Shown: one piece after another, positions 27,301 through 30,300 of the stretch
Layout: every line of letters starts with the position of its first letter
Position numbering within the stretch: the first letter of the stretch is position 1
Origin: Candidatus Eiseniibacteriota bacterium
GTDB lineage: Bacteria > Eisenbacteria > RBG-16-71-46
NCBI GenBank assembly: GCA_031364845.1
Contig: JANLWX010000007.1
Location: 87,395 to 151,394, forward strand
Reading direction: 5' to 3'
DNA: 64,000 bases
Program-made: the position numbers

Positions 27301-30300
27301 TGCTCACCAAGATTCGGAGCTTCAAGATCGAGCGTCGCCCGGCCCACTCGTGAGCGAGTGACGTCTTCGAGTTCTGCCTTAGAGGGGTCCATTCGTTCCT
27401 CGACCCCCGGCGATTGAAGACCCTTAAAGACGGCTGACCTCGCGAACCCGAGACCGCCCGTCTCTCCATCCTCGAAACACACAAGTTCTTTCCCTCACCA
27501 CCATAAAAACAATTGCTACCCAAGTCCCTTATTCGGCGCGGACTTAGATTCTGCCCTCGAAATCACGCAGAAGTCTTGTGTCACCCGAAACACCCGGGGC
27601 AAACTCAGGACTAAGAATGGCGAAGCGAATCGAACTCGATTCGATTGTGCGACATGGTGTTACGGGATTGTCTTGTCGCCGTCAGATCGCTGGCATGCAG
27701 GGTGCTTTAGTAATCAGGCGGAGGGGGGGGACCTCCAAACCAAGTTCAGCGAGCGATTGCTGGACGAACAAGACATCTGGGCTAGCCGGTTCCGTAGGAG
27801 TCGGTCAAGGGTTACGAGCCCCAGTCTCACAAGGACGAATGCACCGCCCTCTACGACCGGCTAGCTTGGAGTAACACTCCGAACATCGAACACCACCCAC
27901 GACTTTTCATATTCCCGGGGTGCTCCTGATACGACAGGCGGCGGGTCCGCTGACGACGAGGGCTCCTGATCCCGCTGCAAGTTGAGCGCCCCGGGGTATT
28001 CAAGGACACCGGTTTCTAGCAACTTCGGCCAGCATTGGGGGATGCCTCGGTCGACGCGGCTTAGCTCTTCGAAGCCGGTGTCCTCGTTTCGAGAAAGTGT
28101 GGCGCGGCTCACACACACGTGAGACCGCGCCGCACTGTTTTTGCCGTCGTCGGTGTGGCGAAGACTGTGGATCCGCGATTCTCCGCCCGTCCCCGCCCCG
28201 TAACTTGTTGGCGCATAAGGATGGCCCCGTCCACTCGGAGCCCATCTACAATCTGCGCCTCACAAGGAAAGCGATGGCACGGGCATTGCCGTTGCTGTTC
28301 CGTTCGCGACTCGTAACCCCAAGGATCGCCTCGCTTACGGAAAGGACAGGCCCATGAGATCCGCCCTGGTCATGACGTCGATGCTCGCCCTGGCAGGCTT
28401 GGTCGCCGGGTGCAACGACTCCACCGCACCCCGAGATCTCATCGCACCCGCGGCTCCGCGCGGCCTGGTGACGGTGACCGGGGACCACGTCGTGTACGTG
28501 AGCTGGCTCGCCAACACCGAAGGCGATGTGGCCGGCTACCGGATCTACGAGGCGCCGTGCCCTGACGGCGACGGGTGCCCCTACGATCCGGTCGGCGTCA
28601 CCTCGAGCACCCGATTCACGATCGAGGGGCTCACCAACGGCGAGACGCGCTTCTTCGCCGTCGCCGCATTCGATCATGCGGGCAACGAGAGCGCCCTATC
28701 CAAGGATCTCGCCTTCGACACGCCGCGACCTGAAGGATTCGACCAGTTCCTCAGTGACGCGACCGACCAGCCCGCGACGAGCGGCTGGGACTTCTCGGCC
28801 CGGGCGGTGCGCGCGTTCGATGATCCGGCGGTCGACGTTTACTATGTACGCTCGAGCGGGGTGGATCGGATCGTCGCGCCGTTCGTGGACACCGACATCC
28901 AGGACGCGGGTTACGCGACCACACTCGATGCCATCGACTTTGCGCCGACCGGCGGCTGGTCGCCGACCGGCGCCACGGAACTCGTGGTCGGGCACTGTTA
29001 CATCGTGCGGACGTTCGACGATCACTACGCCAAGCTGAGGGTCACGGGCCTCGCGGCGGGCCGCGCGCAGTTCGATTGGGCCTATCAAATCGATCCGGGC
29101 AACCGCGAGCTCAAGGCGCGGCCCGCCAATCGCGAAGGGGGCCGGGTCCGCCGGCACACCGTGGCGCTGGTGCCATGAGGGGGTAAGAACACATGGGGTG
29201 GCAGCGGGCGATAGGTTTGTTCGTGGGGCTCGCAGTGCTGTTGTCAGGCTGCGTGCAAGCCTATCGGTCGGTGCGGCCGGAACCCCGGTTGTACGCGGCA
29301 GCGCGTCCGGCACCCGGTTACTACTGCTATGATTGTCACGGCTATCGGTTTCTGGACCCGTACTACGACTGGTGCCCCCCGAACGGCTATCGGTTCCAGT
29401 GGTCCCAGTCCCCGCAGCTCATGCGGGTGTACCGGGAACGCTATGTGGCTTTGAAGCAACGCGATCGCAACCTGGGAAAGTTCCGCTACTCGGACCGCTA
29501 CCGCTCCACGCGGCGCTATCGCGAGTCGCGGCCATACGAGGACGACGCGGAAGGGAAGCGCAGGCCCGGACAGGGCATCAAAGATTCTCGACGGGAGCAG
29601 GACGCCCCACGTCGGGGTAAGAGCGAACGAGCTCCGCGCGATTCGGACGATTCCCGGCCGAAGAAGTCGCGAGGCCAGAGGCCGCAAGGGACCGAATCAT
29701 GACTCGACGCCACGCCGTTCTCACCGCATTCGCGTTGCTTCTGCTCCCGGTGCTTCCGGGTGTCGTGGCCGCGCGCGGATTTTCGGTCGATGTCTGGACG
29801 AACCGCGGCAACGACGGAGTCTATAAGCCCGGCGAAGCCATCGACATCAAAGTGCGCCCGTCCGAAGACGCCTACGTCCTTCTCTACGAGATCGATGCCG
29901 AGGGCTACGTTCACAAGCTCTACCCATACGACCGCTCGAGCGGCATGCTCGAAGGGCGCCGCACCTACCGCCTCGGCGAGGATCAGGACGAGGCGGAACT
30001 CGTCGCACAGGGCCCGGTCGGACAGGGCTTCATCGTGGCGATCGCCTCGCTCGACCCATTCGAGCCGCTGCCCTGGTATCTGCGTTCGGTCGATCGGCAG
30101 GCCGAGGAACTCGGCTACGACGGCGCACCCGAAGACGAACGCGAAGGCATCACGGCCGAAGGACGCATCGTCGGAGATCCGTTCGTCGTCATGGAGCGCA
30201 TCCGCCGGCGCGTCGTCGCGGATCCCAACGACTCCGAGGGCTTCACGACCTCCTACACGAGCTACTACCTCCATCACGAAGTCCGCTATCCGCGCTACCT

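Follow-up and report, generated by a model that had tools for sequence, protein, structure and literature searches.

We describe a folded non-coding RNA gene with its own sigma-54 promoter, located directly after the gene for a sigma-54 activator in Candidatus Eiseniibacteriota bacterium (GCA_031364845.1), and we consider it probable that the product is a trans-acting regulatory RNA, transcribed by the sigma-54 polymerase from this promoter, activated by its neighbor and feeding back on the activator's mRNA. The window, i.e., the whole stretch of DNA analyzed, comprises 64,000 nt of contig JANLWX010000007.1 (positions 87,395-151,394, forward strand), and all coordinates below count along it. 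The genes and promoters of the locus are as follows.

24270-27353, + strand: sigma-54 enhancer-binding protein gene, 1027 aa, with TPR, GAF, AAA+ sigma-54 interaction domain and Fis-type HTH (Pfam)
27691-27706, + strand: P1, sigma-54 -24/-12 promoter of the RNA, with GG-N10-GC spacing in a TGGCA-N7-TGC context
28275-28290, + strand: P2, second sigma-54 promoter, TGGCAC-N5-TTGC type, predicted to drive the downstream operon
28354-31096, + strand: co-located operon of three genes (Pfam)
28354-29178, + strand: first operon gene, Fn3-like lipoprotein (Pfam)
29193-29702, + strand: second operon gene, 169-aa protein of unknown family
29699-31096, + strand: third operon gene, DUF4384 protein (Pfam)

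The Pfam matches on the activator ORF are TPR, GAF, Sigma54_activat and HTH_8. This ORF ends at 27353 and the next begins at 28354, leaving the gene-free gap reported in a first-pass annotation of this DNA, which had also placed an RNA directly after the TPR-GAF enhancer-binding-protein gene. That placement is borne out by a conserved neighborhood, with an activator homologue upstream of the RNA and on the same strand at 29 of the 30 family loci. An activator homologue is likewise upstream in 9/9 further loci (seven from families f2 and f3, one from f1 and one from f7) and in 20/20 f7/f13 loci, one of which is also among the 9 further loci. Homologues of the operon lie downstream of the RNA in 28/30 family loci, 7/9 further loci and 18/20 f7/f13 loci. 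The layout is thus that of a sigma-54 activator next to a conserved non-coding RNA gene with a sigma-54 promoter of its own.

P1 is a sigma-54 -24/-12 promoter at 27691-27706 that follows the sigma-54 promoter consensus and occupies an identical position in all 30 aligned family loci, with TGGCA and TGC invariant; within the window, TGGCA-N7-TGCW occurs 3 times, against 0.59 expected. The promoter called in the first-pass annotation therefore stands, with its GG-N10-GC spacing, while the invariant GGCA-N7-GTGC core given there should read TGGCA-N7-TGC: "GTGC" is too strong because the base before TGC varies (G, C or A). Sigma-54 promoters usually have their transcription start some 12 nt past the GC element, which puts the predicted start of the RNA at about 27717. 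The conserved block, spanning 27719 to about 27872, begins 13 nt past P1, at this predicted start, in good agreement with the earlier proposal of a start some 14 nt after the promoter.

P2 is present in 29/30 family loci, 60-100 nt ahead of the first operon gene, and in 14/16 f7 loci, with P1-to-P2 distances of 323-479 nt in f7. With respect to activator binding, no clear site common to P1 and P2 was found in the family loci. An IHF-core-like motif precedes P1 at a constant spacing in 20/30 loci, compared with only 8/29 for P2, and a common upstream motif considered as the activator site was rejected, its extended form occurring in only 6/30 and 5/29 loci for P1 and P2, respectively.

Downstream of P1, we observe the following elements of the RNA.

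27720-27736, + strand: hairpin 1, GGAGG/CCUCC stem with a G6A loop, at the extreme 5' end of the RNA
27744-27765, + strand: hairpin 2, variable in sequence with the helix kept (6/7 pairs with compensatory changes)
27776-27870, + strand: branched domain with a 14-bp closing stem (27776-27789 with 27857-27870)
27871-28003, + strand: variable linker, unalignable between genera
28004-28083, + strand: second conserved domain, with a 12-bp closing stem around an inner hairpin (28032-28045)
28096-28142, + strand: probable intrinsic terminator, a long GC-rich hairpin followed by UUUUU (sequence and MFE fold)

For the first conserved block, RNAalifold yields 38 pairs, 10 of them compensatory, at -45.0 kcal/mol, and the compensatory pairs rise to 19/38 once the sister families are added. 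Pairing is observed in 97.7% of cells, compared with 28-53% when partners are slid, and the covariation score is 0.195 versus 0.135 in shuffles, with 0/500 shuffles reaching it. The fold z-score is -5.84. Hairpin 1, which pairs an SD-like arm with an anti-SD-like arm, is the most widely conserved part of the RNA and is invariant in alignment A1 except for the presence of 7 or 8 G. The branched domain contains an invariant GGG-UACGAG-CCC hairpin, and its 14-bp stem is near-invariant inside the family, covaries in the sister families (3 pairs changed on both sides) and retains three G-U pairs that are workable on the + strand only. All parts of the fold proposed earlier, i.e., the GGAGG/CCUCC hairpin, the covarying hairpin 2 and the 14-bp closing stem, were recovered here. 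Its exact counts (8/12 genomes, 43 pairs, 7 compensatory) did not recur as such, the larger samples used here giving equal or stronger values.

The inner hairpin of the second domain (28032-28045) presents the loop UUGGGGGA, the second G-rich loop of the RNA, and this domain comprises 22 pairs, 11 of them compensatory. The domain-2 model, R2, finds one forward-strand match per genome in 56/59 f1 and 6/6 f2 genomes, and in the cases compared this match follows domain 1 and shares its contig and strand. Weak R2 matches in f4, f5 and f17 (E 1e-5 to 1e-4) are possibly due to chance. Many relatives carry a U-rich tract after domain 2, which is weak in some genomes. In this genome, the hairpin and UUUUU at 28096-28142 are the probable 3' end of the RNA, judging from sequence and predicted folding, and the terminator arms form an inverted repeat that is conserved in the family alignment. 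A simple terminator/promoter scan did not pick up this long hairpin with its bulges, and its only call was P2, wrongly taken for a terminator. With its ends at roughly 27717 and 28142, the RNA would accordingly measure about 426 nt in this genome, and the length of about 160 nt assigned in the first-pass annotation, together with its undefined 3' end and lack of an obvious terminator, gives way to a longer transcript that includes the second structured domain and the hairpin with its U-run. Family f7 has a short form of 134-138 nt that ends in a clamp helix and U-run, with a U-run terminator in 16/16 f7 loci.

The covariance model of the RNA finds one match per genome in 60/60 family genomes (59/59 others plus this genome) and also matches two sister families, and BLAST with the conserved block hits 55/61 family genomes, this genome included. 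P1 together with hairpin 1 is found once each in 99 of the 151 genomes of the phylum, distributed over five families (f1, f2, f3, f7 and f13), with 0 matches for a reversed control pattern, so that the promoter and 5' hairpin extend well beyond the family. An Rfam cmscan of 27300-28400 on both strands, with E up to 10, returned only three chance-level matches to eukaryotic miRNAs or lncRNAs. The RNA is a new family of a known regulatory type.

Evidence for transcription comes from metatranscriptome contigs of four studies, which cover 27733-28029, near-identical ones crossing the linker; elsewhere in 27400-28600, RNA-library contigs cover only one 64-nt piece (28477-28540). These are assembled contigs from which strand, ends and level cannot be read and in which DNA carry-over is possible, and they suggest, weakly, that the RNA is transcribed. 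The contig-free parts of 27400-28600 are a weak hint at most, given that the flanks of relatives are unalignable and that ends cannot be read from contigs.

With respect to possible targets, the 5' end of the activator mRNA stands out.

24258-24296, + strand: 5' region of the activator mRNA, frozen in sequence, comprising an SD-like GAGGG box, the GTG start codon (24270) and a C7 run (24284-24290)

We observe that 8/9 third codon positions are invariant in codons 1-9 of the activator gene, compared with 2/131 in codons 10-140. A small GAUC/GAUC hairpin (24281-24294) carries the C7 run in its loop. The run is found at +15..+21 (codons 5-7) in 13/13 family genomes checked, and recurs at +15..+21 in 2/2 f2 genomes with a different codon phasing; in 12/13 MFE folds the C-run is within a hairpin loop. 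Runs of C7 or longer number only 87 on both strands of this 4.6-Mb genome. Among 16 family genomes lacking the exact motif, C7 is found in 9, C6 in 3, C5 in 3 and C4 in 1, and the activator start in f3, f7 and f13 has C3-C6 tracts only. The C-run is partly explained by Pro-Pro codons, and the frozen 5' codons could instead serve translation initiation or another factor.

Both G-rich loops of the RNA, that of hairpin 1 (G6A) and that of domain 2 (UUG5A), are complementary to the C7 run, and the candidate pairing spans 7-8 bp, mostly G-C. Set against 1500 random genome windows, the C-run duplex falls within the best 0.9% for the domain-2 hairpin and within the best 3.4% for hairpin 1, which is a modest signal. 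Several other pairings were rejected. Flanking matches that would extend the pairing around the C-run in this genome are not kept in relatives, and the proposal is limited to the G-run:C-run core. Hairpin 2 is identical over 11 nt to part of the first codons of the activator in this genome, which is taken as chance, as hairpin 2 varies in relatives. Pairing with the operon leader appears unspecific, with the P2 leaders having ordinary GGAGG SD boxes that any CCUCC can match. No C-rich site common to the P2 leaders was found, and the leader of this genome fits worst. On these sequence grounds, the activator's own mRNA would be the most likely nameable target of the RNA.

From the conserved adjacency, we infer that the upstream TPR-GAF enhancer-binding protein most likely activates P1 and P2 as tandem promoters. 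The genome has one sigma-54 gene (one Sigma54_DBD match) and 25 Sigma54_activat matches, and because about 20 of the latter are strong, it is adjacency that ties this particular activator to the RNA. Sigma-54 RNA polymerase would transcribe the RNA from P1, and P2 would yield an operon of exported proteins; with P1 making the RNA and P2 the operon, the RNA would be the post-transcriptional arm of the activator's response. We likewise infer action in trans through mRNA pairing, in which the G-rich loops would contact the C7 loop inside the ribosome-binding window of the activator mRNA and alter translation of the activator, closing a feedback loop; repression is favored as its sign, as in the Qrr RNAs and LuxO. 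Because hairpin 1 is invariant in f3, f7 and f13 despite their short C tracts, it must have another role or other targets. More tentatively, a loop-loop "kissing" contact with the C6-7 loop (codons 4-8) may set the activator level, with hairpin 1 having further phylum-wide targets and the RNA being a core regulatory RNA, the first for Eisenbacteria, a combined reading that we regard as possible rather than probable.

Four other explanations were weighed against a trans-acting RNA. The strongest, although unlikely, is that the RNA titrates a protein, its G-rich, GGA-ending loops sequestering CsrA or another RNA-binding protein in the manner of CsrB, RsmZ or CrcZ. The genome has one CsrA gene, and because FliW and Hfq were not found (97% completeness), a known protein antagonist of CsrA is missing. 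Moreover, the last three bases of both conserved loops are GGA, with UGU or UGC following the domain-2 loop, and the f2 RNA carries an extra hairpin with a GGGA loop; we take these conserved loops to resemble the CsrA site. GGA-containing hairpin loops are recognized by CsrA, according to a 2026 study, which also states that few Eisenbacteria CsrA proteins are predicted to be canonical-like (PMC13443453). However, the RNA shows no GGA enrichment (259 observed versus 257 expected in 28 homologues), the two conserved GGA loop sites, or three in f2, are far fewer than in known sponges, and CsrA is present in 132/151 phylum genomes with or without the RNA, so that no co-occurrence signal is seen. 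In the absence of many enriched loop GGA motifs, membership of the CsrB/RsmZ-type sponges was rejected. Less probable still is a cis-acting leader, in which transcripts from P1 read into the operon and the folded domains form an attenuator or riboswitch. Such a leader would fit an RNA that lies directly upstream of the operon and on its strand in nearly all loci, whose large, strongly conserved domains have aptamer-like invariant unpaired bases, and whose U tract past domain 2 is weak in some genomes. Yet the operon has its own P2 close to its start in 29/30 loci, with the terminator between the RNA and P2, the f7 RNA ends in a strong U-run terminator with P2 far beyond its 134-138 nt, the RNA-library contigs end before 28030, and no Rfam riboswitch match is found at E up to 10. 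The conserved P2, which would drive the downstream operon and therefore argues that the RNA is not the operon leader, and the f7 terminator largely remove the concern, raised in the first-pass annotation, that the RNA is a long leader of the next gene.

That no functional RNA is made, the blocks being DNA elements such as activator or IHF sites for P2 and P1 a second polymerase loading site, appears very improbable. Sigma-54 promoters do use upstream enhancers, and a dimeric protein could bind the inverted repeats formed by the closing-stem arms and by the 28096-28136 element. The helices are, however, maintained by compensatory changes, and the conserved G-U pairs would not match in DNA or on the opposite strand. 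The onset of conservation coincides with the predicted transcription start, the blocks are 200-600 nt ahead of P2, which is farther than typical enhancers, and RNA-library contigs contain the region. A small protein encoded in the region has almost nothing to recommend it apart from one frame that is open across the first block in this genome. The block homologues have no common frame, with 8/30 sequences lacking any open + frame and the open frame differing in the rest, and their lengths are not multiples of three but split 11/7/12 modulo 3. Over the whole P1-P2 interval of the 30 loci, no ORF of at least 12 codons is common in position, an SD-like box precedes only 10 of the listed ORFs (in 7/30 loci), and ORFs are absent altogether from one locus. 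The gap thus holds a folded non-coding RNA gene, as the first-pass annotation had argued from its indels, and a trans-acting regulatory RNA remains the preferred reading of it.

Small RNA genes next to sigma-54 activators are known from several lineages. In Vibrio, qrr1 adjoins luxO, and the Qrr RNAs are Hfq-dependent; in enterobacteria, GlmY is a sigma-54-dependent small RNA beside its two-component activator genes GlrK/GlrR; and in Myxococcus, a soil bacterium with many such activators, the short RNA Pxr, which controls development, has a sigma-54-type promoter and lies next to the activator gene Nla19/PxrR. No sequence or Rfam match to Pxr is seen here. A close parallel in layout is the CrcZ/CrcY-CbrB system of Pseudomonas, in which crcZ directly follows cbrB but forms a transcription unit of its own, with a sigma-N promoter that CbrB activates, in synteny conserved across the group, and gives an RNA of several hundred nucleotides (PMC8871633). 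The RNA described here differs in that CrcZ binds Hfq/Crc, whereas no Hfq was found, in lacking any Rfam match or likeness to CrcZ in sequence or fold, and in the second promoter and protein operon that follow it; CbrB, in turn, is a response regulator, unlike the TPR-GAF protein. A CrcZ-type Hfq/Crc sponge, which would call for Hfq and A-rich Hfq-binding motifs, was accordingly rejected (no Hfq match at 97% completeness, no Rfam match at E up to 10; no search was aimed at A-rich motifs). The Qrr RNAs are sigma-54-dependent small RNAs switched on by the enhancer-binding protein LuxO, which they repress in a negative feedback loop (PMC3262071); the corresponding activation here is deduced from gene order. 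They are about 100 nt long with linear pairing regions, in contrast to the hairpin loop contact between a G-run and a C-run proposed here, and they likewise find no Rfam counterpart in our RNA. GlmY serves as a decoy within the RapZ/GlmZ system (PMC7073468). It differs in having another fold and acting as a protein decoy, and no homologue signal is seen here.

To our knowledge, Eisenbacteria have no cultured member, and we found no paper in the literature on RNA regulators of this group. In its full form, the RNA is a single-copy element of essentially every genome of one family, as well as of two sister families, and it is linked with a single signal-sensing sigma-54 activator and with an operon whose products are exported proteins. 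The promoter pair, the RNA and the candidate target site offer a testable entry into regulation in Eisenbacteria, one that can be rebuilt in a laboratory host. The pairing of a sigma-54 activator gene with an adjacent small RNA gene, an arrangement seen repeatedly, also gains a further independent lineage here, perhaps one in which the RNA feeds back on its activator.

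The 1000-nt gap between the gene of a TPR-GAF sigma-54 activator and the downstream operon is the site of a gene for a conserved, structured RNA, in the following arrangement.

24270-27353, + strand: activator gene, an ORF of 1027 aa with TPR repeats, a GAF domain, a sigma-54 interaction AAA+ domain and a Fis-type HTH
24270, + strand: GTG start of the activator, with a GAGGG box before it and a C7 run (24284-24290) flanked by two GAUC words
27691-27706, + strand: P1, sigma-54 promoter of the RNA
Domain 1 of the RNA: hairpin 1 (GGAGG/CCUCC stem, G-rich loop), hairpin 2 and a branched domain with a 14-bp closing stem
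28004-28083, + strand: second conserved block, domain 2 of the RNA
28096-28136 plus UUUUU, + strand: long GC-rich hairpin, next after domain 2 in this genome, putative terminator
28275-28290, + strand: P2, second sigma-54 promoter
From 28354, + strand: downstream operon, with genes for an Fn3-like lipoprotein, then a 169-aa protein of unknown family, then a DUF4384 protein

P1 reads TGGCA-N7-TGC with 10 nt from GG to GC, fitting the sigma-54 consensus, and the genome has a single sigma-54 gene. It occupies the same aligned position in all 30 loci fetched by BLAST from the family of this genome (f1), with TGGCA and TGC invariant; the invariant GTGC core reported in the first-pass annotation was too strong a claim, since the base preceding TGC varies. 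Sequence conservation sets in at 27719, where the P1 transcript should begin, the usual spacing predicting a start near 27717. We observe a motif resembling the IHF core (consensus CAR-N4-TTR) 38 or 53 nt before P1 in 20 of the 30 loci, compared with 1.5 in shuffles. Many relatives carry a conserved AT-rich motif (ATTTTGTTYCG-like) between the stop codon of the activator gene and P1, about 105-125 nt upstream of the promoter (L002, L007, L012, L014-L016, L018, L021, L023). Indistinct in this genome, it may represent an enhancer or mark where the activator transcript ends. The window holds two further + strand TGGCA-N7-TGCW matches (5528-5543 and 16023-16038, the latter TGGCAC...GTGCT), as well as two more sigma-54 activator genes, at about 51601-52101 (+) and about 18561-19061 (-), the second adjoining a HAMP-HisKA-HATPase kinase gene (19513-21018, -) in an NtrB/NtrC-like pairing.

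BLAST with 27660-28160 recovers the block in 55 of 61 f1 genomes (this one counted) and in 28/28 genera. The fold of domain 1, from 30 f1 sequences, has 38 pairs, 10 with compensatory changes; paired cells make up 97.7%, against 28-53% with slid partners, and the observed covariation was reached by 0 of 500 shuffles. With eight more distant homologues compensatory pairs number 19/38, including 3 in the closing stem, in an alignment that favors the model structure because each addition was aligned to the model, and in which a non-homologous hairpin sits under helix 1 in the rows of f2, a sister family of f1. Three conserved G-U pairs in the closing stem are compatible only with a + strand RNA. 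A simple motif search detects the second block in 28 of 30 loci, and domain 2 folds into a 12-bp closing stem enclosing an inner hairpin whose G-rich loop is invariant (22 pairs, 11 compensatory). Because we take the 28096-28136 hairpin and its UUUUU as the terminator, the RNA would measure about 426 nt rather than the ~160 nt proposed earlier; folded alone, 27717-28143 gives -196.4 kcal/mol and a z-score of -5.84. Many relatives have a U tract directly after domain 2 and then a further GC hairpin with a T-run, so the exact 3' end may differ between genomes. Across f1, 110-170 nt before P2, the terminator hairpin keeps the sequence of both its arms (GUGUGGCGC ... GCGCACAC, whose inner core resembles CGCACACCUGCGAC), and f2 has a similar element placed after the terminator; the element could double as an activator-binding site of P2.

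The covariance model of domain 1 matches once per genome in 59/59 other f1 genomes and in this one, in 5/6 genomes of f2 and 3/3 of f3 (two sister families in the same order) and in 1/32 of f7, with no match in the other 13 families sampled. A pattern of P1 plus hairpin 1 is present, as a single copy each, in 99 of 151 genomes (f1 55/59, f2 4/6, f3 3/3, f7 32/32, f13 4/12), and its reversed control gave 0 matches in these 151. The domain 2 model has one forward-strand match per genome in 56/59 f1 and 6/6 f2 genomes and none in the three of f3; in the cases compared it lies downstream of domain 1 on the same contig and strand. Every f2 count takes in one unpublished genome (G067), from which no sequence is given and which is not the sole basis of any claim. 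Scanning one genome per species for promoter plus hairpin returned at least 119 records, mostly titled Candidatus Eisenbacteria. Records with the exact pattern under other titles (Methylomirabilota, Bacteroidota, Alphaproteobacteria, Saccharimonadales, Acidobacteriota and others; L080, L094, L102, L108, L111, L138, L139, L142, L147, L151) are probably mislabelled or contaminated bins. The conserved RNA of the first-pass annotation is real, its size and spread having been underestimated.

Synteny follows the RNA across these families. The activator lies upstream on the same strand in 29/30 f1 loci, 9/9 further loci (seven of f2 and f3, one f1, one f7) and 20/20 f7 and f13 loci (one also among the nine), with the first operon gene downstream in 28/30, 7/9 and 18/20, respectively; the sole f1 locus lacking the activator has a flank of just 850 nt that carries an opposite-strand partial hit. 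The f7 RNA is compact (134-138 nt), with hairpin 1 followed by a domain clamped by a long helix ending in a U-run (37 pairs, 10 compensatory); an activator homologue lies upstream in 16/16 f7 loci and P2 downstream in 14/16, 323-479 nt from P1. The f2 RNA carries an insertion of about 130 nt between hairpin 1 and the closing stem (L066 2960-3110), with an extra GGGA-loop hairpin that the covariance model misaligned to hairpin 1. Beyond the operon, on the same strand, are genes for an HtrA/DegP-like protease with two PDZ domains and an AMIN-domain N-acetylmuramoyl-L-alanine amidase (33286-36221), which suggests that the region has to do with the cell envelope.

P2 is present in 29 of 30 f1 loci, the exception stopping at a contig edge, and one locus has a third site. 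It stands 60-100 nt before the first operon gene, the leader of which has a normal Shine-Dalgarno box. The RNA as leader of the operon was largely discounted, because the operon has this promoter of its own. No + strand frame is shared across domain 1 in the 30 sequences: eight lack an open frame, the remainder do not agree on which frame is open, and block lengths are distributed 11/7/12 modulo 3. Nor does the P1-P2 interval hold an ORF of at least 12 codons common in position among the 30 loci, one of which has none at all. The block is non-coding, as first proposed, given the lack of a common frame and lengths that are not multiples of three. Seven metatranscriptome runs from seven studies contain 6-10% of the sampled words of 27400-28600. 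Contigs of four runs (127-346 nt) cover 27733-28029 and leave the rest bare except for one 64-nt piece at 28477-28540; two match this genome almost exactly (1 difference over 171 nt, 7 over 271 nt), and loose contig ends carry hairpin 2 versions of relatives. This fits an abundant discrete RNA reaching past 160 nt, as supporting evidence only, since the contigs show neither strand nor ends and DNA carry-over is not excluded.

As to mechanism, the G-rich loops of the RNA would pair with the C-run at the start of the activator mRNA, a feedback that we put forward tentatively, at somewhat under an even chance. The first 25 nt of the activator ORF are almost identical, with C7 at +15..+21, in 13/13 f1 genomes first checked, and two f2 genomes keep the C7 run in a different codon phasing. 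Third codon positions are invariant at 8/9 sites in codons 1-9 versus 2/131 in codons 10-140, which points to selection on RNA, not protein. The C-run falls within a hairpin loop in 12/13 MFE folds, and stretches of seven or more C are rare, numbering 87 over the two strands of 4.6 Mb. The exact 24-nt 5' motif occurs in 36/60 f1 genomes and in 0/91 outside f1; among 16 f1 genomes lacking it, 9 retain C7 with altered surroundings, and the run is C6 in 3, C5 in 3 (one start uncertain) and C4 in 1. Complementarity extends over 7-8 bp, pairing domain 2 GGGGGAU with AUCCCCC and hairpin 1 GGGGGGGA with UCCCCCCC, and by energy the two duplexes fall in the top 0.9% and 3.4%, respectively, of 1500 random genome windows. 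However, f3, f7 and f13 have only C3-C6 tracts at the activator start despite an invariant hairpin 1, so feedback cannot be the whole story. One relative, G017, carries the motif on two contigs (C3:773-796, C22:17543-17566), which could reflect either duplication of the locus or redundancy in the assembly.

Action by binding of the protein CsrA appears unlikely. CsrA is encoded in this genome, where FliW and Hfq were not detected, and both conserved loops end in GGA; yet GGA is not enriched in the RNA (259 versus 257 expected), CsrA occurs in 132/151 genomes with or without the RNA, and few Eisenbacteria CsrA proteins are predicted to be canonical-type in a 2026 study (PMC13443453). Downstream of the sole csrA (G000 contig C20, about 6636-9330, L070), in the same orientation, come a PAS-HisKA sensor kinase gene and, after it, a sigma-54 activator gene, with no fliW near csrA.

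Parallels to the pairing of RNA and activator include GlmY/GlrR and Pxr/Nla19. The same layout is found for crcZ, which PMC8871633 places after cbrB with a sigma-N promoter, CbrB activation and conserved synteny. It also matches Qrr/LuxO, where the Qrr RNAs are activated by LuxO and in turn repress it (PMC3262071). The RNA falls outside the CrcZ, Qrr, GlmY and Pxr families: it has no Rfam match and no sequence likeness to them, and no Hfq was found in the genome. Our literature search found no paper joining Eisenbacteria and sigma-54 and, for Eisenbacteria and small RNA, only CsrA work. The RNA family described here is real and previously unpublished, belongs to a known regulatory type and comes with a testable candidate mechanism.
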